From Mustelus asterias (Eukaryota), in contig NC_135818.1 of NCBI RefSeq assembly GCF_964213995.1, positions 24,056,001-24,120,000 of the forward strand: a stretch of DNA of 64,000 nucleotides. The letters are read 5' to 3'. The translations under genes and the position numbers were made by a program. Shown in pieces: positions 18,401-48,400 of this stretch. The notes beneath the pieces were generated by a model. That model saw only the letters and a list, made by a program, of their open reading frames with translations, ran no database searches and was not told where the DNA came from. Within the stretch, counting starts at the first letter, position 1, and every line of letters starts with the position of its first letter.

Positions 18401-21400
18401 AAATCACAAACAGAAAATGTTCTCCCTTTTTGACTTCAGTGAATTACAGCAGAAGGTGGGCCCAGAAGAAAAGAGGGAAGTTTGAATCAAGTGAAGATGT
18501 GTTTCTGATGCTAACAATGAGTAGTTTATGTCAAGCTCTGACATTATTTGCTTTTGTTCATAACTAAAGAATCATTGGTACTGCCGGTGAGAATATTTTT
18601 TTGGGCCAGTAGAGATGATTGATATCTTGCAGTGTCATTTCCTTTGGCAGTATCCATGATCTCATGCACAACTATACTTGTGATTGGTGATCTAATCAAT
18701 CTTAATGTTGAAGTGCAGTTGAATTCAGAATAATATGGTTACACCCTTGCTCCTTGCTCATACATTGCAAATCCTTTGCAAAGGCAGAGAGCAGCTTTCT
18801 CCACCAGAGAGAGAGACAATATTAAGGGTTACTTGGAGACATCTTCAGCTATTCGCCTGCCAACTCTTTAAACTTGTACTTCTCTCTCTGTGGGTTTAGT
18901 TAATAATATTTCTCCCAACATCAGCCCACAGTATAATTCAATACTTGTTTAGTGGTTAGGTTTGATGAGGTGACCCACTGCATTTTTATATTGATCATTT
19001 ATAAACCAAATGAGTATTGGCTGCTGAGTTTTATTGGTTCTGGAGTGCACAGGTAAAATGTGCTGAGTACATTAGTGTTTCTATTGTCTCACTGAAAGGA
19101 CTAATGACATATGATCTCTGTGGATCTCTGCTTCCTCAGAGCCTGAAACCTATTGTAAAAATGACTAGAAATACAGTATGTTGCTGATCACATTGTTTCT
19201 CATTCTTTCGTTGTTCTTACATCTAGTTCTTAATGGGAACACGTGTGATTCCTCGCTGACTTTTAACATCTCCTGGTACCTCAGGTATTCACACTGCTAC
19301 AATGAAGTCTTCAACATGCAAGTAAGTTTAATTTGCAGTAGGTTAGACTTGCAAGTAGTATATTGCAGTGCTGTTTCGTGAAGCTTTTGACATAGACAAT
19401 TTGCTGGATGCACAACAGAATGTTGGTCCCCATTTGCAGCCACACACATTTTGTTTATGTAACTATGAAAAATGCTGAGCAAAGGGTGACAGAAGAAGAA
19501 GGGTGAAAAATTTAGGATTTTAGTTGTATTTGAATAGGGCTGTTTTGCTTGGTGGATGGAATGCTTTCTCCTGGTATCAGCATCTTACATTTTCTGGAAA
19601 GTAACATCAGACGAAACTGTGTTGAATCCCAGTTTAGTCAATGTTCCACTTCCATTTAGTCCACAGACATGGAGACCATTAAGTCTGGCGGGGTAGGGGG
19701 GAGTGCCTTTGGGCTTGTGAAGACAAAGATTGCAGGTAGTTATCAGTACCACTGCAATTGCGTAGAATTCAGTCTGCAATTTGAAAGAAGGAAGGCAGAA
19801 TCAGATGTGAAGGTTCTACAGTTAAATAAAGGTAATTACAGGCGCATGAGGGAGGAACTGACAAAAATCGACTGGAAGCAGAGCCTAGTGGGAAAGACAG
19901 TAGAACAGCAATGGCAGGAGTTTCTGGGAGTAATTGAGGACACAGTGCAGAGGTTCATCCCAAACAAAAGAAAGGTTATCAGAGGGGGGATTAGGCAGCC
20001 ATGGCTGACAAAGGAAGTCAGGGAATGCATCAAGGCAAAAGAGAGAGCCTATAATGTGGCAAAGAGTAGTGGGAAGTCAAGATTGGGAAGGCTATAAAAA
20101 CAAACAGAGGATAACAAAGAGAGAAATAAGGAAGGAGAGGATCAAATATGAAGGTAGGCTAGCCAGTAACATTAGGAATGATAGTAAAAGTTTCTTTAAA
20201 TACATTAAAAACAAACGGGAGGCAAAAGTAGACATTGGGCCGCTCCAAAATGACGCTGGTAATCTAGTGATGGGAGACAAGGAAATAGCTGAGGAACTTA
20301 ATAAGTACTTTGCGTCAGTCTTCACAGTAGAAGACATGAGTAATATCCCAACAATTCAGGAAAGTCAGGGGGCAGAGTTGAATATGGTTGCCATCACAAA
20401 GGAGAAAGTGCTAGAGAAACTAAAAGGTCTGAAAATTGATAAATCTCCGGGCTCAGATGGGCTACATCCTAGAGTTCTAAAGGAGATAGCTGAAGAAATA
20501 GTGGAGGCGTTAGTTATGATCTTTCAAAAGTCACTGGAGTCAGGGAAAGTCCCAGAGGATTGGAAAATCGCTGTTGTAACCCCACTGTTCAAGAAGGGAA
20601 CAAGAAAAAAGATGGAAAATTATAGGCCAATTAGCCTAACCTCAGTTGTGGGCAAAATTCTAGAATCCATCGTTAAGGATGAGATTTCTAAATTCTTGGA
20701 AGTGCAGGGTCGGATTAGGACAAGTCAGCATGGATTTAGTAAGGGGAGGTCGTGCCTGACAAACCTGTTAGAGTTCTTTGAAGAGATAACAAATAGGTTA
20801 GACCAAGGAGAGCCAATGGATGTTATCTATCTTGACTTCCAAAAGGCCTTTGACAAGGTGCCTCACGGGAGACTGCTGAGTAAAATAAGGGCCCATGGTA
20901 TTCGAGGCAAGGTACTAACATGGATTGACGATTGGCTGTCAGACAGAAGGCAGAGAGTTGGGATAAAAGGTTCTTTCTCAGAATGGCAACCGGTGACAAG
21001 TGGTGTCCCGCAGGGTTCAGTGTTGGGGCCACAGCTGTTCTCTTTATATATTAACGATCTAGACGACGGGACTGGGGGCATTCTGGCCAAGTTTGCCGAT
21101 GATACAAAGATAGGTGGAGGGGCAGGTAGTATTGAGGAGGTGGGGAGGCTGCAGAAAGATTTAGACAGTTTAGGAGAGTGGTCCAAGAAGTGGCTGATGA
21201 AATTCAACGTGGGCAAGTGCGAGGTCGTGCACTTTGGAAAAAAGAATAGAGGCATGGACTATTTTCTAAACGGTGACAAAATTCATAGTGCTAAAGTGCA
21301 AAGGGACTTGGGAGTCCTAGTCCAGGATTCTCTAAAGGTAAACTTGCAGGTTGAGTCCGTAATTAAGAAAGCAAATGTAATGTTGTCATTTATCTCAAGA

Positions 21401-24400
21401 GGCTTGGAATACAAAAGCTGGAGGCTGGAGCGATCCGATGCTGGATGGGAGACACCGAACGGGCCACGTGAATGGCAGGATGGTAGAAGGTGATGGGATA
21501 TGTTGATCATTATAAAGGATCTTTGATATTTCATTAGCTGCAAGAAAGCAATGGAATTGTTTGAAGAAGAGTTGACATGTCCCATCTGTTGCTGTTTATT
21601 TGAAGACCCACGAGTTCTCCCTTGTTCACATAATTTCTGCAAGCGATGTTTAGAAGGCATTTTGGAAGGAAGTGGGAGAGGTATGCAATGCAAAGTTGCT
21701 TTCAAATGTCCAACCTGTCGCAAAGAAACCCCTATCATGGGAATTAACAATTTGCAGGTGAATTATTCGCTGAGGGGAATAATTGAGAAGTACAACAGGA
21801 TTCGGAACACACCTAAAGTGCCACTCTGCAGGAAGCATAGTGGGCAACCATTGAACATCTTTTGTTCAACGGACCTTGAATTAATCTGTGGGTTTTGCGC
21901 CACTATGGGAGACCATGAAGGACATTCCTTCTGTGCCATCAAAGATGCCTACAGAGAGGAGAGGGAAGCTTTTGATGGGCTTTTCCAAGGGCTAGAAACT
22001 TGGTGTTCTGCTGATGTGCAGACATGTCTGGAGAAGTTAGAAAGTGATAAGAAAAAATCCCTGCAGCTAATAAGCAAGGATGCAAAAAAGGTGATGGAAT
22101 ATTTTACCAAGTTGCAGCACACACTGGAGCAGAAGAAGAATGAGGTTCTTTCCGATTTTGAAACCATGAAGCTGGTGGTGATGCAGGCCTATGATCCAGA
22201 GATAAATCAACTGAAGATGATCCTAGAAGAACAGAAAAGGGCTATCACTATGGCAGAGACGTTTAAGGATGTCACTGATCCAGTCTTATTTCTACAGCAG
22301 ATGCAAGAGTTTCGCAGTAAAATTAAAGTTGTAAAGGAAACCCCATTGCCTTCTTGCACAAATCTTGAGGTGCACCCTGTAATGAAAAATTTTAACACAA
22401 GCCGTTGGGATAAGGTGAGGCTGAAGGATGTTGATAAAGTTACTTTACCTACAGAGAATTATACCTTCAGATTCAAAGACCCTACTAAATGGTCAGGTAG
22501 AGAATTTGCACCTCCTATTATCAGCCTCCTGCTCCTTATCATAGCGTTCTGGCCTAGTGAGATAATACTTGGCAGCTTTGAGGCTTTGGAAAGCCATATG
22601 ACCACACTCGCTGGCTTATTGCACTATAGTGAGATTGTGGGCATACTTTCACTTGGGTGTCAAGGGTGTAAAAGTATTATTCACGAGTTGTGGCAGAAGG
22701 TAGCAGAATTTGTGCAAATATGAAATACTGTAATGGGTGTGAAAGATTACTGCTAAATTGGAACTACACATCAACCGTCATAGGTGTTGCATGTCTGAGA
22801 TCTCTAGGACCAGATATGTGTGACCTATCTTTTTCACGATCCGAAGATGCAAGAAATTGTGAAAGGAGGCCTGATTATTTTGGATGTTTAGTACTTTAGT
22901 GAATTGGGGATTTTATTTTTAGGTTCAAGTTTTAAATTTATAGCAGTGATTCATGATTTGATCAGATGGATACATTTTAGCTGTGGAATCCATCTGCCTA
23001 CATGACTGGGGACTGTTGTAACTGAACAGTAGTCTCCCTCAGACTTATTTTATATTGTAACGTGGTGATACGCAAATGATCTATTGAGTAATGATTAATA
23101 TTCTTCTAAATTGCCACTTTCATTGTATAATTAGACATGCTTGCTCAGTGATGCATTTCTGCTCCTGTTTTTTAAAAAAAAAAGTATCAGTGCAGCTTTT
23201 CACAAAGATGTGCTTTACCAAAATGAATATACTTTCATTTTTCCTGTGGATGAACACCATGCTGTGCGCTATGAATGTATTTCACAAAAACTGATTCTGG
23301 ATGTTTGTATTTAATAAATGTGAAAGAAAAAAAAAAGGTAGTAATCTCAGGATTACTGCCTGTGCCACGGGAAGGTGAGGGCAGGAATGGAGTGAGGTGG
23401 AAGATGAATGTGTGGCTGAGGGACTGGTGCAGGGGGCAGGGATTCAGGTTCCTGGACCATTGGGACATCTTTAGGGGCAGGGGTGATCTGTATACAAAAA
23501 ACGGGTGGAACTTGAATCACAGGGGGACCAATATCCTGGCCGGTAGGTTGGCTAAGGCTACTGGGGAGAATTTAAACTAGATAGGTTGGGGGGAGGGGAG
23601 CTAGAAGAGTTGACTAGGATCAAGGAACTAATTGATGGGGGGGAGGATGCAGGGGTAAGGGGAATTACAAAATTAATGGTAGAGGAGAGGGTGCAAGTGA
23701 ATGAAGGCGGTAATTTAGATAAGGGAGTAGAGGGAGAGGGTGTTCGCGACTCATCAAAGCGGGTCCAGATAAAAGCTGGAATAAGGACACTTGGCCTGAA
23801 TGCACGAAGCATTCGGAACAAGGTAAATGAGTTGATGGTGCAAATCAGCACAAGTGGGTACGATCTAGTGGCCATTACAGAAACGTGGCTGAAAGGTGAC
23901 CAGGACTGGGAGATGAATATCCAGGGGTATCAGGCGTTTAGGAAGAATAGACCGGAAGGAAAAGGTGGTGGGGTCGCGCTATTAATAAGAGATAATATCA
24001 GGGTAGTACTGAGGGAGGACATAGGCTCTGAGGAACAAAACGTGGAATCATTATGGGTAGAGATGAGGAATAGTAGAGGGAGAAAGACACTAGTAGGTGT
24101 GGTATATAGGCCCCCAAATAATAATGTTGAGGTAGGGAGGGCTATAAACAAGCAGATAAGGGATGCGTGTAAAAACGGAACGGCAATAATCATGGGGGAC
24201 TTCAACATGCACATTGACTGGCAGACTCAAGTCGGTAAGGGTGGAATGGAGGAAGAGTTCTTAGAATGCTGTCGGGATAGTTTCCTTGAACAGCATGTTA
24301 CGGAACCGACGAGGGAACGAGCTATTTTGGATCTGGTATTGTGTAACGAGGTAGGTAGAATTAAGGATCTTATTGTGAAGGACCCTCTTGGGTCTAGTGA

Positions 24401-27400
24401 CCACAATATGGTCGAATTTCTGATTCAGATGGAAGAGGAGAAAGTTTGGTCCCAAACCAGTGTCCTCTGTTTGAACAGAGGGAAATATGATAGGATGAGG
24501 GATGAATTGGCTAAGGTAGACTGGGAGAGCAGGCTGGCAGGTAGGATAGCTGAGGAACAGTGGAGGATTTTTAAGGAGATCCTTTTCAGTTCTCAGCAAA
24601 AATATATTCCAGCAAAAAACAAGGATTGTAAGAAAAGGGAGAACCAGCCGTGGATAACGAAGGAAATAAAGGAGAGTATTAAAATAAAAACAGCTGCGTA
24701 CAGAGTGGCCAAAAATAGTGGAGAAACAAGTGATTGGGAAAAATTTAAGAAACAACAAAGAGAGACTAAGAAAGCGATAAAGAAAGGAAGGATAGACTAT
24801 GAAGCTAGGCTAGCAATTAATATAAAAAATGATAGTAAAAGTTTTTATAAATATATAAAAAGGAATAGAGTGGCTAGAGTGAATGTTGGACCCTTGGAGG
24901 ACGAGAGGGGGGAGTTAATAGTGGGAAATGAGGATATGGCTGAGTCTTTAAATAAGTTTTTTGTGTCGGTCTTCACGGTGGAGGACACAAATAGTTTGCC
25001 AAATATTAACGATAGAGGGTTGGCAGCAGGAGAAATACTTAATACAATTAATGTTACCAGAGAGGCAGTGCTGGGTAGACTAATGGGACTGAAGGTGGAC
25101 AAGTCCCCGGGTCCGGATGGAATGCATCCCAGGGTATTGAAAGAAATGTCAGAGGTAATAGTGGATGCATTAGTGATTATTTATCAAAACTCGTTGCATT
25201 CTGGGGTAGTGCCGGTTGATTGGAAAACGGCTAATGTTACGCCGCTGTTTAAAAAAGGAAGGAGACAAAAGGCGGGTAACTATAGGCCGGTCAGCTTAAC
25301 GTCTGTAGTAGGGAAAATGCTGGAATCCATTATTAAAGAGGAGATAGCAGGGCATCTGGATAGAAATGGTTCGATCAATCAGACGCAGCATGGATTCATG
25401 AGGGGAAAGTTGTGCTTGACGAACATGTTGGATTTTTATGAAGATGTGACTAGGGCGGTTGATGGAGGAGAACTGGTGGATGCGGTGTTTTTGGATTTCC
25501 AAAAGGCGTTTGATAAGGTGCCCCATAAAAGGCTGCTGAAGAAGATTAGGGCGCACGGAGTTGGGGGTAGTGTGTTAAAGTGGATTGGGGACTGGCTATC
25601 CGACAGGAAGCAAAGAGTCGGAATAAATGGGTGTTTTTCCGGTTGGAGGAAGGTAACTAGTGGCGTGCCGCAGGGATCGGTACTCGGGCCGCAACTATTT
25701 ACCATTTATATAGATGATCTGGAGGAGGGGACGGAGTGTAGGGTAACGAAGTTTGCAGACGACACAAAGATAAGTGGAAAAGTGAATCGTGTGGAGGACG
25801 GAGAAGATCTGCAGAGAGATTTAGACAGGCTGAGTGAGTGGGCGAGGATATGGCAAATGGAGTATAACGTTGATAAATGCGAGGTTATACACTTTGGAGG
25901 AAATAATAACAAATGGGATTACTATCTCAATGGAAACAAATTAAAACATGCTACCGTGCAAAGGGACCTGGGGGTCCTTGTGCATGAGACGCAAAAGCCC
26001 AGTCTGCAGGTACAACAGGTGATCAAGAAGGCAGATGGGATGTTGGCCTATATTGCGAGGGGTATAGAATATAAAAGCAGGGATGTCTTGATGCACCTGT
26101 ACAGGGCATTGGTGAGGCCGCAGCTGGAATACTGTGTGCAGTATTGGTCCCCTTATATGAGGAAGGATATATTGGCATTGGAGGGAGTGCAGAGAAGGTT
26201 CACCAGGTTGATACCGGAGATGAGGGGTTTGGATTATGAGGAGAGGCTGAGGAGATTGGGTTTGTACTCGTTGGAGTTTCGAAGGATGAGGGGGGATCTT
26301 ATGGAGACTTATAAGATAATGCGGGGGCTGGATAGGGTGGAGGCGGAGAGATTCTTTCCACTTAGTAAGGAAGTTAAAACTAGAGGACACAGCCTCAAAA
26401 TAAAGGGGGGTCGGTTTAGGACAGAGTTGAGGAGGAACTTCTTCTCCCAGAGGGTGGTGAATCTCTGGAATTCTCTGCCCACTGAGGTGGTGGAGGCTAC
26501 CTCACTGAATATGTTTAAAGCGTGGATGGATGGATTCCTGATCGGTAAGGGAATTAAGGGTTATGGGGATCAGGCGGGTAAGTGGTACTGATCCACGTCA
26601 GATCAGCCATGATCTTATTGAATGGCGGGGCAGGCTCGAGGGGCTAGATGGCCTACTCCTGCTCCTATTTCTTATGTTCTTATGTGTTATTTTCCAGCTA
26701 ATCAGCCATTTGCCTGAATTTCCAGATTGTTGTTGCCACAGTTACAGTGCTCATACTAATATGATCATCTTCACGCTCCCTGTAGTCAGTTGTGGGCAAG
26801 TTACTAGAATCTGTCATTAGTGTTTGAGTGACTGAGTGCTTGGAATATAAAGAGTTGATCAGAGGGTGCCAGCATGGCTTTGTTAATGATAGGTTATCTC
26901 TGACTAACCTAATTATTATTTTTTTAAAAGGTAGGGAAGGGAATATCTGTGGATGGGTGGAGCATAGAAACATGAGTTGGCCAATCAGCCTTTCGAGCCT
27001 GCTCTGCCATTCAGTTAGCTCATTGCTAATTTGGATCTTAACTCCATTTTCCCACCATTTTTTCCATATCAACAGCCATATGTGAGATGGTGGCAAACGG
27101 GATCACAGAAAAAGCGATTCACATTTCCATTATTCTTTGAGTGAAAAGTGCTTGCTAAATTTTAAAATTATGTCCCTTGTTCTTGATTTTCCTATCACAG
27201 GAAATAGTTTTTCCATATCCACCTCATAAAATTCTTGAACATAAACACCTTGATCAGATCAACCTGATATATATGGAAATACAAGTGAAATTCATGCCTC
27301 AAAGACCTACTAGGGAATAGTCCTGTGTTTTGCTGACCATGCTCATGGTCCCAAATACCATCAAAAACATGTGAAGATAGAAATCAAAAACAGGCTCCAT

Positions 27401-30400
27401 TGATATTGCACCTTATTGCTCCTCTTAACAATGTTGGGTCAGTGGGAGAACTCTCACCTGTGAGTCAGAGGTTTGTGGGTTCATGTCCCTCTCTTTTGCC
27501 TTGAGCGTGAAGCCATTGCTGCAATGTTGAAGAGATGCCGGAGTAAATTTTCTCGTCCCGCCTGCCAATGGAATCGTAGCAGGCGGGACAGAACTTTAAC
27601 CGGAATATTTAAATGTCTGTTGACCTCGGGTGGGAATTTCCGGTCTTGGGGCTTGTGTGGCTGGAAAATCCTGCCTGCCATCTCTCAGTAAGAAGTTTAA
27701 CAACACCAGGTTAAAGTCCAACAGGTTTATTTGGTAGCCAAATTTGGCTACCAAATAAACCTGTTGGACTTTAACCTGGTGTTGTTAAACTTCTTACTGT
27801 GTTTACCCCAGTCCAACGCCGGCATCTCCACATCATGCCATCTCTCAGACAGAGACATTTGCCGGAATTCTACCACCCCGCCCACCAATCGGAGCGGGCA
27901 AGGGGCGGACAACGGAAATGTCCGTTGATCTTGGGCGGGAATTTCTGGTCTTGCTTCAATGAGGCCGTAAAATCCCGTCGATTAAATCAAGGCCCAATCT
28001 GCCCTCTGTAATGGAGGTAAAAGATCGCTTGACATTATTGTGAAAAAGAGCAGGGGGCATTCACCCCAGTGCAGATATTTATCCCTCAACCAATATTACC
28101 AAAGATAGATTGTCAGGTCATTGGCACATAGCTGTTTATGGGAACTTGCTGTGTGCAAAATGGTTGCTGCATTTCTTATACTAAATGGTGCCAACACTTC
28201 AAAAGTGTTTTATTCGCTGCAAAGCACTTCAGAATATACAGAAGTCAGAAAAAGAAGCTATATAAGTGCGGATCTTTCTTTATCTCAAAATCTTAGTGAA
28301 TTAGTTTGAACTCAGTTCTGTAGATCTTTTTCTGGGTAGTACATCAGCAGCAGATGTAAGGAATGGCTGCATATGACTATCTCTTAACGGGAAGACACTT
28401 ATTCCCTTCCCTCCATGACTTATCCTCCTCCCCCCATTTTGGCCCCTTCCCTGCTTTTCTAACTATGCCTCATTCTACAGTGAAACATTGAAGCCTTCAA
28501 TTTTTATATTTCCGTATTTCAATTCATTGCAGGATGAGCAGAGTATTGTATACTTTGAAAATAACCGAGAAGTACATGATGGATGGTCGGGAAGCTATGC
28601 ACAGAATTTCATCATTATTGCGAACTGCACGGAGCTCCTTAAAAAACAGGTAACTCAGAGCATTGTGAATCTCGTAGTGCGAAGTATAAACGCTGTAGTG
28701 TATTTATGGGGTGGGCTCTGTTGTGTGAGGGGAAGGGGGGCAATTTTGTAGTTTGTCTATAGGGAGGGGGCAATTCGATAGTTTGTGTACGGGGAAGGAG
28801 CACTTTACATTTGTGAGAGCTACGGGAAAATTCTGTACTTTGTGAGTCCAGAGGGGGTAATTCTGTCATTTATGTGTGTGGAAGGGGCGACTTTATAGTT
28901 TGTACGCATGGAGGGGCACCTCTAGTTTGTACACACAGTAGGGGAGGGCGCCTTTGTAATTTGCATACATAGAGTGGGGGTGCCTCTGTAATTTGTACAC
29001 ACGAGGTGTGTGCCTCTGTAGCTGTGCATACAGAGGGAACTCCTCTGTAGTACTTTTAAAGATGGGACAATGGGTTCACATAAGGGGAGATTTAGAAACT
29101 TAGCGAGAAAGGTCAAGACAATAGTGTAGGTTAGCAATGCGGGGAATGATGACCAGTGTGTGTCTGGAAGGGTCAGAGGATGAGGTCAGGGTAGAGAAAA
29201 TTGGTAAGGAAACAGATTTAATGGCTCTTTATCTCAATACAAGTAGCATTCATAGCAAGTTGGATGAATTAATAATACACAAAAAATGTGTTTAATATGA
29301 AAGGTATTACAGAGATATGCTTGTAAGATGATCAAGGATGTCAACTGAATATTCAAGAGTATCTACCATTCCGGAAGTATAAGAAGAAAGGAAAACAAAG
29401 TGGGGTGACTCTATTGATAAAGGATGAGAACAACACAATAGTGAGAAATGTTGATGGCTAGGAAAGTCAATATGTAGAATCGGTTTGGATGAAGCTGAGA
29501 AATATCGAAGGAAACAAGTCACTTATGGGAAGCTTATAGGCCTCCTAACAGTAACTACACCAGGACTGAGCATAAATTAAGAAATAATGGGGACTTCTAA
29601 GAACAGGACTACAATAATCGTGAGTGATTTAATTATCTTGAAGATAGCTTTGAGAATAAGTTAATAGAATGTATTCGGGACTGTTTCGTAGCTGGTATCA
29701 CCCAGGGAGTAGGCTATTTTAGATCCCTTTAATGTGTAATAGGACAGGATTAATTAATCACCTCAGTAAAGAATCTTGCCAGGACAAGCAATTATAACAT
29801 ATTAGAATTTCACTTTGAGGGTGAGAAACTTGGATCTGAAACTAGTGTCTTAAACTACAATAAAGAAAATTACAAAAGTAGGCAAAGTAGTGTACAATAG
29901 GCAGGGAAAATAAGTGAAAAGGTGAGACGATAGAGAACCATTTAATGAGATATTTCATAACTCTGAACAGATATATATTCCATTGAGGAAAAAATGAATC
30001 TATAGGGAAGATAACATTTTGCGGATAACTTAAGAAAGTTAATTATAGTATCAAATTAAAAGAAAAGGCATACAATGCTTTATAAGTTAGTGATAGGCCA
30101 GGAGATTGTGAAAAAATTAGAAACCAGAAAACTATGACTAAACATACTAAAGAGGGAGAAATTGGAATACAAAAATAAACTAGCAAGGGATTTAAAAATA
30201 TGGTAAGAGCTAGTACAAGTATATATAAAAAGGAAGAGAGTAGCTAGGTAAACATTGGTCCTTTAGAGGATAAGACTGGGAAATAAGGAAAAGGCAGAAA
30301 CTTTGAACAAGTATTTTTTATCTGTTTTCAGGGTGAAAACACAAAAATCCCAATAATAACAGAAGAAAATCAAGGGGAAAAAAGGGAGGGTGGAAATGAA

Positions 30401-42400: not shown

Positions 42401-45400
42401 ACTTTCCTTCCGGAAGGCAAAACGTTGCCTTGAGATAACCAGCAGACTTTCCAAATAGAACAGGGAGACAGAGACTTCAGCTTCTTTCTTGATGCCCCTG
42501 CTAAAAACTAAACTGCAGCCTTCGAACTCTCTAAACTGGAATCTTACAAGGGAAAAAAAACTGTCCAAAACATACGACCTTTTCTCCTAACAATGCAGGA
42601 TTGTAAACTAATCCCAGAGTAACCATAAATAACCCCACTTAAGCTTTGAAATAACAATAAAAGGACAATTCCAGTCAAGTCAGGAACAATAATGACATCA
42701 CTGAAGCTTTGAGCTAAGAAATCACTGAAGCTGTGAGAGCTGCAGAGAAATGTAAAAAAAACCTTTCTTAAAAGGGGCACTAACGTCACACCAATGCTGT
42801 CAGCTACAAGGGGAAATGTAAAATTAAAAGCCTCCAAAGACATTTTGAAGGTGCTAAGCACATGGGGTAATGGTAATTAGCATGAGCAAAGATTTTGATC
42901 AGGCTTTAAAGGGCTACCAGTTAAGTAGCATGTCTTGGTAGGGATAGGAGGAGTAAGGCTGTAATATTTTTAAGGCTTGGCTCCTTGTGGGCTAGGATGT
43001 CAGAATGAGTGAAATCAAGGATTTGGAGTAGAAGAAGTAGGTTGAATTAAGGTCATGTAGACTCTTTGAAATCGGGACTAGGATTTTCAAGACCAGAAGA
43101 GGAAATGGAGGAAATAGACAAACAACATTTTTATTTTCTATTTTCAGAATCCAAGAAGTGCTCAAGGTGATAGTAAAGATAATACAACAGTTGAAGTAAA
43201 TCCCCCTCCGCACACTACATTTGAGGTGAGTACAGCAGAAATGTGTAAGTTCACTTGGTGACTTTCGAAGAGAAACTTTTATTAAAGACTACAATTATTT
43301 AAGGCCTTGATAACGTCACAGCGAGAGTACTGAGTGCAGTTTTGGTCTCCTGAGCAAAGAAGGGATATATTTGTCTTGAAGGGAGCAGAATGAAGCCTCA
43401 CCTAGTTTGATTCCTGGAATAAGAATATTGTCTGATGAGGAGAGATTAGATAGACTGGTCTTGTATTTCCGAGAATTTAGAAGAATAGGCTATTTGAAAC
43501 ATATAAAATTCCTACAGGGCTTGAATAAATTCTGGAAGAACATTCTCCTAGCTGAAGACTCTAGAACATGGGGTCACAGTTTCAGAATAAGGGTTGACTA
43601 TTCAGCACATAGATAAGGAAAGATTTCTTCACTTAAGCATTGTGAATTTTGGGAATTCTGTACTCCGGAGATTTGTGGATGTCAATGGTTGAGTATATTC
43701 AAGAAAGAGATGTTTTGAGGTACTGAAGGATATGTGATTAGAACAGGAAGATTAATCAATATTATTACATTATTGAATGGCAGAACAGGATTGAAACTCC
43801 AAATGGCCTATTCCTGCTCCTGTTTCTTGTGTGTTTAAAATAATTTCAGTGCAAATTATAGTGGGCAGTTAACTATTGTAATTACGGAACTGAGGATAAT
43901 TAATTGAGTGGCACTCTACAGACTTATCTGTTTGTGGAGTCAAAAAAATTCTTTAAAACTCTGTCTTCCTCCTGAGGGATTTCCACTCCTCTGCTTCAAA
44001 CGGTTAATCTGATCACAAGCCAAAAGCAGCTATACAAGTTCCACAGGTACGATCTTAATGCAAAAGACACACCATTCAACATTTTCTCTCACATTTGCTG
44101 ACAGGTCCAGCATTCTTGGTCTTCTTTCCAGCTGAGTTAACCGACTGAGACCGAGTTCCTCCACCACCCCGGCTCACATTGGCTAGTTCAATGTCTCAAC
44201 TCAAGCAAGTTCCCAGCTTCTCAGGCACACAGCTGCCAACAATTGCTTCTGGGCTCCCCTGAACTCCAACTCTGAGCAATACAGAGCTACCAGCAGCTCC
44301 AGGGCTTTCCTGAGACCTATCAGCGCAGAACTAATAGCAGTGCTTCAGCCGCATGGGACGAACTCACCTCCTCTTCTGCTTCCCACCACCTGTTGTGACC
44401 ATTTTCAATTTCTGAAGAGGGTTTGCCCTTCCTAAGCAAGGTGTAATATATGCAACCTTTGTAGATGGGTATATTCAGTGCCTTAAATGTTACAATCTTC
44501 CAATCCACCAGAGCTCCCCTGTCCCTCCCCCCCCCCCCCCCCCGCGTCCCTCATCCCCCCGCCCCCCCCCCTGTCGTCGTCCCCCGTCCCCGTCCCCCTC
44601 CCCTGTCCCCGCCACCCCCTCCCCTGTCCCCCGCCCCCCCTCCCCTGTCCCCCGCCCCCCCTCCCCTGTCCCCCGCCCCCCCTCCCCTGTCCCCCGCCCC
44701 CCCTCCCCTGTCCCCCGCCCCCCCTCCCCTGTCCCCCGCCCCCCCTCCCCTGTCCCCCGCCCCCCTCCGCTGTCCCCCGCCCCCCCTCCGCTGTCCCCCG
44801 CCCCCCCTCCGCTGTCCCCCGCCCCCCCTCCGCTGTCCCCCGCCCCCCCTCCGCTGTCCCCCGCCCCCCCTCCGCTGTCCCCCGCCCCCCCTCCGCTGTC
44901 CCCCGCCCCCCCTCCGCTGTCCCCCGCCCCCCCTCCGCTGTCCCCCGCCCCCCCTCCGCTGTCCCCCGCCCCCCCTCCGCTGTCCCCCGCCCCCCCTCCG
45001 CTGTCCCCCGCCCCCCCTCCGCTGTCCCCCGCCCCCCCTCCGCTGTCCCCCGCCCCCCCTCCGCTGTCCCCCGCCCCCCCTCCGCTGTCCCCCGCCCCCC
45101 CTCCGCTGTCCCCCGCCCCCCCTCCGCTGTCCCCCGCCCCCCCTCCCCCTGTCCCCCCCTCCCCTGTCCCCCCCTCCCCTGTCCCCCCCTCCCCTGTCCC
45201 CCCCTCCCCTGTCCCCCCCTCCCCTGTCCCCCCCTCCCCTGTCCCCCCCTCCCCTGTCCCCCCCTCCCCTGTCCCCCCCTCCCCTGTCCCCCCTCCCCTG
45301 TCCCCCCTCCCTGTCCCCCCTCCCCTGTCCCCCCCTCCCCTGTCCCCCCCTCCCCTGTCCCCCCCTCCCCTGTCCCCCCCTCCCTGTCCCCCCCTACCCT

Positions 45401-48400
45401 GTCCCCCCCTACCCTGTNNNNNNNNNNNNNNNNNNNNNNNNNNNNNNNNNNNNNNNNNNNNNNNNNNNNNNNNNNNNNNNNNNNNNNNNNNNNNNNNNNN
45501 NNNNNNNNNNNNNNNNNNNNNNNNNNNNNNNNNNNNNNNNNNNNNNNNNNNNNNNNNNNNNNNNNNNNNNNNNNNNNNNNNNNNNNNNNNNNNNNNNNNN
45601 NNNNNNNNNNNNNNNNNACCCCACCCCCCCACCCCTCCTCCCTGCCCGGTCCCCCCCCACCCCCACACCCCCTCTTGCCCGGTCCCCCCCCACCCCCACC
45701 CCCTCTGCCCGGTCCCCCCCACCCCACACCCCCTCTGCCCGGTCCCCCCCACCCCCACCCCCTCTGCCCGGTCCCCCCACCCCCACCCCCTCTGCCCGGT
45801 CCCCCCCACCCCCACCCCCTCTGCCCGGTCCCCCCCACCCCCACCCCCTCTGCCCGGTCCCCCCCACCCCCTCTGCCCGCTCCCCCCCACCCCCACCCCC
45901 TCTGCCCGCTCCCCCCTCACCCCTCTGCCCGCTCCCCCCCTCACCCCCTCTGCCCGGTCGCGCCCCCTCTGCCCGGTCCCCCCACCCCCTCTGCCCGGTC
46001 CCCCCCCCCCCCTGCCCGGTCCCCCCCCCCCCCCCCCACCCCCTCTGCCCAGTCCCACCCCCTCTGCCTGGTCCCCCCCCCCCACCCCCTCTGCCCGGTC
46101 CCCCCCTCTCCCCGCCATCGCTCTCCCCCGCCCCCCCCCCCTCTCTCTGCCGTCGCCCCCCCGCCGTCGTCCCCCGTCTCTCCCCCGCCCGTCCCCAACC
46201 CAGTTGTTAACTCACAAAACACACAGCAAAATGCAAAAAATATTGATTTCCTCACGACCTGTGGAACTTTCACCCTATAGTGTTTGAAAACGTGTATTGA
46301 TTCAGTAATATTTCCCAATTTATCTCATCTCTTTTACCAATTTTGGTAAAGCCTCACATGATCGGCTTAGCTCTTGCTGGGTTTCTCTAAAATTCCTTGA
46401 ACTATGAAGTTCAAAGACAAAACTAGTGAGGTGTTTTTAACCACATTTAATCTTCTGTAATATTCTTCTGCTGAGATTAATCCTCTGAGATTGGGGCCAA
46501 GGAGTTAAATTGGCATTCAATCTGGCAGGCCTGGGACTTGGGTACTGAAAGAACGCGTTGCAATTTTCAGGAATGAATCCTGATCAAGTCCAGGTTAGCG
46601 GTGGCTAATTTGGTGTATTTGCATTTTATGTTTATTGTCTTGTGGGAATACTATGAAATTAAATGCAAGTGCTGAAAATCAAAGGACAGATCACTGCCGA
46701 ATCTGTGAATGAGTACTGCAGAATCACTTTAATATTTTTTGCAGTCTTTTTCTTTCTTTCTCAATATCTGTTTACAAATTTCAGCGACTGGTTTGCCTCA
46801 TTGACTCTTCTTTCTCCATAGTTCACTGATTACTTGACTTTGTAGTTTTATCACAGGACATTCAGTCACAACATTGGTTAAACGGTCCCACGTTGGTGCT
46901 TTACTAGTCACACATTGGTTAACTTGTTCACGCTGTGTTTTACTTCTCATGCCTTTAACAGTCTTTAGAAATGGTATTGATTTTCATGTTTGATTGTAAC
47001 CTAGCTGCAGTCTTCTGTTGAACTAAAGTTAAACTGAAAACCAAAAAGGATCAAGTATATGGTTCCTGACCCGCATAAAGGGCTAATTGCCAATTAAGCT
47101 GGATGCACTCCAGTTTTTCTCAGTTCATGAATTATTGGACCCACTTGTAATGGTACCACTTTCACTCTCCAAAAAATAGCTAAACAAGTATGTAACAAGA
47201 ACCCCCCAAGTGTTTCTTCCATCTGTGGAGTGTATAGAGTTATCACCAACCTAATCTTACTTCATGGTATAATAATCCAGAGAAAGATAAAATTAAATAG
47301 TGGCAGCAAAACTGATGACTTAAGGGAGAGAGGGAGGGGGGATGAACTGACAGCTGTGGCCTGTCCCTTCAGCCTTGGACAACTACGAATGAAATGAAAC
47401 AAGAATTACTGAAGAGCAATGTATGCAGTCATATCTTGACTATCCATTACTTGAAGCAAAAAAGATATTTTTTTTTGGACACAAGTTTCCATTGCCACGT
47501 AAACTAGTTGGATGCGGCCCAGTACCTGATATAATATGGCCGGGGAATGCAACTTTTTGTTTTTCTGGTCATTTTCCATCCTAAAGGAAAGCACATGAAA
47601 ATTTGGTTCCTTTCTCATTGTTGTGCATGTTCTTTATTTCCTTAAACAGAGGCCTGGCTTGTTCACAAGTTGGGAAGATGGGCCATATTTATTTATAATT
47701 AAAATCCAAGCATCAAAGAAAGAGTCAAAGAAAGAAGAAAACAGCCAAGACATAAAATCCACAACAAAAGTAACTAACCAGATAACGAATAAAAGTAAAG
47801 GGCAGGCAAATGCAAAGAAGAAGGCTGTGCCAGCAGAGGAAGATCATTTGTCACTTACAAGTAAGTACTGTTCATTAACTTGGACGTTGTCACTTCGAAC
47901 ATAGAACAGTGCAGGCCCTTCGGCCCTCGATGTTGTGCCGAGCTTTGTCCAATACCAAGATCAAGCTACCCACTCCCTATCATTCTGGTGTGCTCCATGT
48001 GCCTATTCAATAACCGCTTGAAAGTTCCTAAAGTGTCCGACTCCACTATCACAGCAGGCAGTCCATTCCACACCCCAACCACTCTCTGAGTAAAGAATCT
48101 ACCTCGGACATCCCTCCTATATCTCCCACCATGAACCTTATAGTTATGCCCCCTAGTAACAGCTACATTTACCCGAGGAAATAGTCTCTGAACGTCCACT
48201 CTATCTATCCCCCTTATCATCTTATAAACCTCTATTAAGTCGCCTCTCATCCTCCTCTGCTCTGAAGAGAAAAGCCCCAGCTCCCTCAACCTTTCCTCAT
48301 AAGACCTACCCTCCAAACCAGGCAGCATCCTGGTAAATCTCCTTTGCACTCTTTCCAATGCTTCCACATCTTTCTTATAGTGAGGTGATCAGAACTGCAC

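Follow-up and report, generated by a model that had tools for sequence, protein, structure and literature searches.

A spliced TRIM13 mRNA copy between two young CR1 pieces in Mustelus asterias: likely capture through template switching

How can a complete, spliced messenger RNA come to rest in an intron of a shark genome, joined at both ends to LINEs that are held to copy cellular mRNAs only seldom? Reviews that state this stringent-recognition view cite Suh 2015. According to PMC5470649, cellular mRNAs are seldom copied by CR1, since it recognises its own 3' end, and the same view is found in PMC3747384. Retrocopies in cartilaginous fishes number 14,081 in a VGP preprint on 244 vertebrate genomes (10.64898/2026.06.26.734816), which ties them to CR1 or Tx1 content and does not use the word 'template' in its main text. 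Here we describe a near-full-length copy of a spliced TRIM13 mRNA that lies between two young CR1 pieces. We propose, with moderate confidence, that it is the likely product of one insertion during which the CR1 reverse transcriptase (RT) switched template twice, and that it is probably non-functional.

The host intron and the spliced TRIM13 copy

The window, by which we mean the whole stretch analysed, comprises 64,000 nucleotides of a 3.68-Gb assembly (G000:C18:24056001-24120000), and its features are collected in Table 1. Along the + strand, a piece that we call LINE-A, three nucleotides, the TRIM13 copy, an A-tail and a second piece, LINE-B, make up a composite of 6.9 kb. Pfam profile matches identify the host as a TMEM87-family gene whose strand matches that of the insert. 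Exons with PF21901 bracket the insert, which thus lies entirely within a single TMEM87-family intron in the sense orientation, and GOST_TM exons of the same gene follow farther downstream on the same strand; of the neighbours named in a preliminary description of this DNA, TMEM87A is borne out by these exons at the level of the family. Elsewhere in the window (44416-46287) there is a C/T-rich low-complexity tract with a GC content of 65%, strong skew and long open frames on both strands.

Table 1. Features of the composite and its host intron (positions within the window)
Feature	Position	Strand	Evidence
Host exon 5' of the insert, TMEM87A/B GOLD domain	19227..19321	+	PF21901 positions 39-65, E 5e-12; AG/GT borders
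LINE-A: CR1 piece lacking both ends, middle of ORF2/RT	19762..21418	+	99.1-99.7% to 22 family loci; RVT_1
Three junction bases	21419..21421	+	in neither LINE-A nor parent at this place
TRIM13 non-coding exon 1	21422..21462	+	C17:4891071-112; parent donor GTAAGA
TRIM13 non-coding exon 2	21463..21544	+	C17:4884279-361, identical to parent; borders TTTCAG / GTAAGT
TRIM13 exon 3: 6 nt of leader, CDS, most of 3' UTR	21545..23322	+	98% to C17:4878538-4880317; parent acceptor TAATAG
Intact TRIM13 frame, 390 aa	21551..22723	+	open reading frame list, no stops; profile matches
Micro-inversion of ~33 nt relative to parent	23153..23185	.	copy's orientation is that of another species (X5)
AATAAA poly(A) signal	23313..23318	+	sequence; also in parent
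A-tail, 14 nt with one G	23323..23336	+	absent from parent DNA; last three A common to LINE-B
LINE-B: 5'-truncated CR1, other subfamily	23337..26685	+	full-span matches 98.6-99.4% among 17 family loci; Pfam
Next host exon after the insert	28533..28649	+	PF21901 positions 70-103, E 0.014, below cut-off

The parent gene lies on contig C17, and NCBI names its protein TRIM13 (XP_078088064.1, Mustelus asterias). About 4 kb downstream of it there is a BTB_2 exon, which we take to fit the TRIM13-KCNRG neighbourhood. A DNA search of the assembly gave six matches, namely the copy, three blocks on C17, an inverted 47-nt echo within the third of these blocks and a 45-nt piece on C2. At E <= 1e-20, the protein search found only the copy, the parent and a 39% paralogue on C3 among the 106 of 370 candidates that were scored. 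A spreading chimeric family was considered and rejected, since among the scored matches there is one copy besides the parent and the C3 match is another TRIM gene. This C3 locus (L062:983-2386; G000:C3:56742890-56743813) is itself a second single-exon RING/B-box gene, which is probably TRIM59.

The mRNA origin that had been suspected from the look of the leader holds when the leader is aligned to the parent, where it falls into three C17 blocks with GT..AG borders, its last 6 nt belonging to the third; the parental introns between the blocks, of ~6.7 and ~4.0 kb, are precisely absent from the copy. The second leader junction, 21544|21545 followed by 6 nt to the ATG, had been placed correctly, and the first, put at ~21478, lies 16 nt away at 21462|21463. 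Two GT-AG introns have been lost, the parent sits on a different contig, and the tail has no counterpart in parental DNA, which proves the mRNA origin. The spliced origin, the order and orientation of the pieces and their exact junctions are therefore demonstrated. With a non-parental tail and a parent still present in its own neighbourhood, this is a real, young and intact TRIM13 retrocopy, ordinary as a gene.

At its ends, the retrocopy is slightly shorter than the span 21419..23336 first assigned to mRNA: it does lie there, with a parental match that runs from 21422 to 23322. In the parent, the first matching base stands 26 nt after a TATAAA, and one deep contig from another species (X5) begins at exactly that base, which makes 21422 the likely transcription start. 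Through the three bases before it, a 7-nt stretch of the 5' end of the mRNA is fully repeated in tandem. At the other end, the AATAAA had rightly been noted 8 nt before an A10 run. The copy-parent match stops 4 nt past this signal, where the parent goes on to read TTTTAATC, and X3 and X5 contigs extend 10-11 parental bases beyond 23322. The 3' UTR, described as full, is thus present for the most part and lacks at least the last 10 bases of the mRNA. Priming on an internal A-rich tract, which the preliminary description had raised, is rejected, as the parent has no A-run after the last shared base; the 14-nt tail is not an internal tract. Part of the tail may be LINE-derived, since the AAAG present in LINE-B itself would equally account for its single G.

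Across the 33-nt micro-inversion in the 3' UTR, X5 aligns to the copy with one 3-nt insertion, and X3 and X4 carry the parent form. The inversion lies between short inverted repeats in the parental 3' UTR, and the parent's form appears to be the derived one, with the retrocopy keeping the older orientation. The 45-nt piece on C2 (L006:1501-1545; G000:C2:88591506-88591550) is 88% like the TRIM13 3' UTR and has the orientation seen in the copy. It takes the place of a stretch of decayed sequence that resembles histone H2B, and is possibly a templated patch and possibly chance.

The coding frame is open throughout, as had been reported. RING, B-box and coiled coil are recovered by profile matches, the coiled coil (TRIM_CC) with 24.6 bits, below its cut-off of 30, and the proposed membrane anchor corresponds to a hydrophobic 19-mer at residues 323-341 (Kyte-Doolittle mean 2.24). 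TRIM13 acts as an ER-membrane E3 ligase. Nine coding differences separate copy and parent, seven of them silent and two changing an amino acid (positions 199 and 312). The intact frame carries less weight than had been implied, given that an unselected copy at this divergence stays open in ~65% of cases (0.82 x 0.79). A LINE-TRIM13 fusion protein is rejected: ORF2 of LINE-A and TRIM13 share a frame, yet two stops intervene.

Two young CR1 pieces joined to the copy

The preliminary description was silent on what is the most informative feature of the locus, namely that both ends of the copy are fused to young CR1 pieces. The sequences place both flanks in the CR1 clade: LINE-B through an ORF2 with APE endonuclease and RT, an esterase-type ORF1 and a short-repeat tail, and LINE-A through its RT match and its 66% likeness to LINE-B. 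The clade name rests on this anatomy. LINE-A breaks off inside ORF2 and lacks 593 nt of the family's 3' end; in all 11 loci read, family sequence runs on past this break at 21418, which lies 3 nt before the first parental base of the TRIM13 copy. One private 2-nt deletion lies near 20079. LINE-B consists of the end of ORF1, an open ORF2 and an intact microsatellite tail. Its ORF2 (23556-26591) is fully open, 1011 codons from stop to stop with endonuclease and RT, in an element without its 5' end. The tails of the two families finish in a common TCTTATG repeat. Seen as parts of an LTR element the flanks do not fit, for they carry endonuclease and RT and a microsatellite tail.

The A-tail of the copy abuts LINE-B directly; the pieces join directly at both junctions and share the sense orientation. 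In natural copies of LINE-B, 11 of the 15 bases before the break point are A, a richness equalled by 6 of 4237 windows of one full copy (a post hoc count over overlapping windows). In the LINE-B junction test, the 20-nt overhang was A-rich LINE-B sequence in the 10 loci, out of 11, that could be read. The genome contains a single instance of eight A running into this LINE-B site, the one described here, and so the join is not a family variant; a hot spot at the A-rich site is rejected on the same count, the sole genome match being this locus. None of the other 39 scored junction matches carries TRIM13 sequence across either junction.

Around the composite we found no target-site duplication, with no shared word longer than 5 nt at its outer ends; three young CR1 copies in older repeats (L026, L053, L055) also look blunt by eye. 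Nor is there one around the mRNA copy alone, whose immediate flanks are the CR1 pieces. A search of this assembly for the empty site gave 0 matches. Among the loci fetched, three young LINE-B copies (L056, L057, L058) have inverted or nested CR1 pieces at or inside them.

Outside the inversion, copy and parent differ at 17 sites. Contigs of two other species, over 40 of 70 alignment rows, place six of these on the copy's side and six, together with the inversion, on the parent's; three conflict and two lie outside those rows. About half of the coding differences arose in the parent. Private changes number 4 of 1657 in LINE-A (0.24%), 14 of 3349 in LINE-B (0.42%) and 6 to 11 of 1901 on the branch of the TRIM13 copy, the two LINE counts being upper bounds because the family loci (22 and 17) come from the best 40 scored among 523-1096 candidates. 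The three rates (0.2-0.4%) are not different (P 0.30-0.59), in a comparison of low power. Were the rate given for the epaulette shark in PMC10587355 (7e-10 per generation) to hold here, 0.3% would correspond roughly to 4 million generations, with a range of 2-21 million. Matching young copies of LINE-A and LINE-B each make up ~0.02-0.09% of the genome by lower-bound counts, and they are rare enough that a chance landing beside two of them is unlikely.

One insertion or more

We hypothesize the following course of events. Target-primed reverse transcription would begin on LINE-B RNA, at its 3' tail, in keeping with what CR1 presumably requires. After 3.35 kb, the RT would reach the A-rich patch in ORF1, where the nascent DNA would end in T and could jump to the poly(A) of a TRIM13 mRNA. 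The RT, skipping or lacking at least the final 10 bases of that mRNA, would copy it through to its 5' end, slip by 3 nt and jump into the middle of a LINE-A RNA. Another 1.66 kb would then be copied before blunt joining to the intron. The first of these switches, from LINE-B RNA to the mRNA poly(A), accounts for an mRNA that ends in a CR1 tail, for the A-rich break and for the agreeing ages, and we hold it with considerable confidence; we are less sure of the second, from the 5' end of the mRNA to LINE-A RNA. The locus has several of the marks, listed in PMC2104539, by which LINE template switching is recognised: a cellular RNA on the 5' side that is full length but for at least its last 10 3' bases, a LINE on the 3' side that is truncated at its 5' end and keeps its own 3' end, and direct joins in the same sense.

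One insertion is favoured by the lost GT-AG introns, the direct sense junctions, the A-rich break, the unique join, the likely start site and the equal private divergence. Against it counts the missing target-site duplication around the whole, which leaves the usual proof of a single event absent, though the blunt look of the three other young CR1 copies takes away the force of this sign. Transcript-like contigs go 10-11 nt beyond the start of the A-tail, which lies just 4 nt past AATAAA, and the searches for other mRNA-CR1 joins found no second case; both of these also count against it. The second switch could be dispensed with if a TRIM13-LINE-B chimera had inserted at or in a pre-existing LINE-A and deleted its last 593 bases, with the common TCTTATG repeat guiding the priming. 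Such a course needs just the well-supported 3' junction, and the loci fetched include young CR1 copies that sit inside older repeats. It also needs a rare, very young LINE-A as its target (by the lower-bound counts given above), LINE-A is not more diverged than LINE-B (P 0.45), and at the 5' junctions of the 11 LINE-A and 17 LINE-B loci there is no truncated young CR1 of the other family in the same sense. We regard it as possible but rather unlikely.

We find it improbable that the copy is an ordinary poly(A)-primed one, for which an L1- or Tx1-type enzyme would have cut LINE-B at its A-rich patch, with loss of the sequence between it and a LINE-A nearby. For an L1-type endonuclease, an A-rich target is fitting. 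CR1 or Tx1 are named as drivers of retrocopies outside mammals in preprint 10.64898/2026.06.26.734816. Two very young CR1 copies would have had to lie side by side and to lose up to about 890 nt of LINE-B and 593 nt of LINE-A, and the target has no duplication. Long-tailed insertions are moreover scarce: the 3.68 Gb yield 15 matches to AATAAA plus 18 A, at 6 places, against 8 for the control. Duplication at the DNA level or an assembly artefact is extremely improbable in the face of two introns removed to the base at GT-AG borders, a non-parental tail, and 17 substitutions plus an inversion relative to the parent, of which six and the inversion are in the state of other species.

The insertion with two switches has counterparts in known systems. 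Template-switch chimeras, tripartite ones included, are known for L1 and fungal LINEs, and their 5' parts are full length, according to PMC2104539; the TRIM13 copy, which begins at a likely start site, resembles them in this. The chimeras described there (U6-L1, WEIRD-MgSINE-MGL, B2-U6-L1) likewise join a full-length cellular RNA directly and in the same sense to a 5'-truncated LINE, and have three pieces through two switches. Here, in contrast, a CR1 carries a spliced mRNA that codes for a protein and has an open frame; the piece on the 5' side comes from the interior of another CR1 subfamily, and direct repeats do not flank the insert. The same source describes fungal switch sites without microhomology, whereas an A-rich patch marks the first switch here. 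In PMC4476161, stringent LINE clades (L2, RTE) yield U6 copies solely as template-switch chimeras, one incomplete and unresolved U6-CR1 case is given for the turkey, and tripartite structures are said to be able to arise in two events as well. Those U6 chimeras share with our locus a LINE that requires its own 3' end and carries cellular RNA only as a chimera, with small or no target duplications; their cargo is the U6 snRNA, mostly 5'-truncated in the platypus, and ours is a 1.9-kb mRNA (PMC4476161).

LTR-mediated retroposition, as portrayed in PMC5131818, also places an mRNA copy between discontinuous pieces of retroelements, and brief similarities or added bases are found where the pieces meet. 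Unlike there, the elements here are non-LTR, of two subfamilies that are 66% alike and not colinear parts of one element, and with one copy further spread is not seen. With a classical L1-type processed pseudogene the locus shares lost introns, an A-tail and a new chromosome, but it has no target duplication and a short tail, and the insert ends in a CR1 3' end instead of an A-tail. In the literature covered, subscription papers only weakly, we found no full-length mRNA captured by CR1, and no mention of TRIM13 in the papers listed by one search.

Generality, gene function and meaning

The chimera looks like a one-off. At 35 other loci with AATAAA and an A-run, none had a sense CR1 directly behind, a weak test in that most of these loci look like chance or SINE tails. 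They comprise the 6 places with AATAAA plus 18 A and 29 of 30 loci fetched from 75 matches with exactly 12 A (one overlap was dropped), a number only mildly above the 52 of the control. The AATAAA-to-A12 motif recurs nearly unchanged on L115 (C10) and on the eight small contigs C200, C283, C319, C369, C540, C567, C746 and C755, which marks a multi-copy element. A search with SLU7 returned five exons of one gene only, and one with RPS3A the gene and one old retrocopy, at which there was no directly fused CR1 3' piece. This old RPS3A processed pseudogene (L071/L072; G000:C9:90795859-90797278) is split by a 1-kb antisense CR1. As far as tested, in samples that are small and mostly not retrocopies, these results speak against a common route.

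The TRIM13 copy is probably not a working gene. That it is a retrogene under purifying selection, whatever made it, is quite improbable in our view, and the observations can be read both ways. NCBI lists the copy's protein, too, as a gene product, and its branch has three silent and no clear amino-acid changes, with two unpolarised changes, one of each kind (P 0.04-0.11 with transition weighting). Measured against the rate of the flanking LINEs, 2.8 amino-acid changes would be expected and 0-1 are seen (P 0.06-0.23); the silent/replacement split is no different from that of the LINE pieces (P 0.21-0.59), and the silent changes may stem from the source allele. One X4 contig aligns from 21389, 30 nt inside LINE-A, to 23322 and may reflect RNA from the locus. 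It seems to cross the copy's 5' junction, and it would also fit host pre-mRNA, library DNA or a mixture in the assembly, and it is no demonstration of a TRIM13 transcript from this locus. The X3 and X4 contigs, from runs that may be of RNA or DNA, show the parent's alleles at every listed site. The copy has no promoter of its own: it is without a TATA box and the LINE-A piece is without a promoter region, so any RNA is likely read-through from the host intron, and by a simple rule the stretch from the host exon to the ATG contains no strong splice acceptor.

It would be a bolder claim that CR1 switching onto poly(A) is a general route to whole, intact retrogenes in sharks, whose long-tailed L1-type insertions are few, and that this copy is an expressed second TRIM13 under selection; we find that joint reading very doubtful. 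The copy matters little as a gene unless expression and selection are demonstrated. The interest of the locus is moderate and lies in how cleanly it illustrates a likely capture of an mRNA by CR1. If the insertion arose through template switching, the youngest shark retrocopies would often be expected to have the 3' piece of a CR1 at their end and the break at an A-rich site. The locus is a young example, resolved to the base, of how CR1 could carry a complete mRNA despite its stringent recognition.
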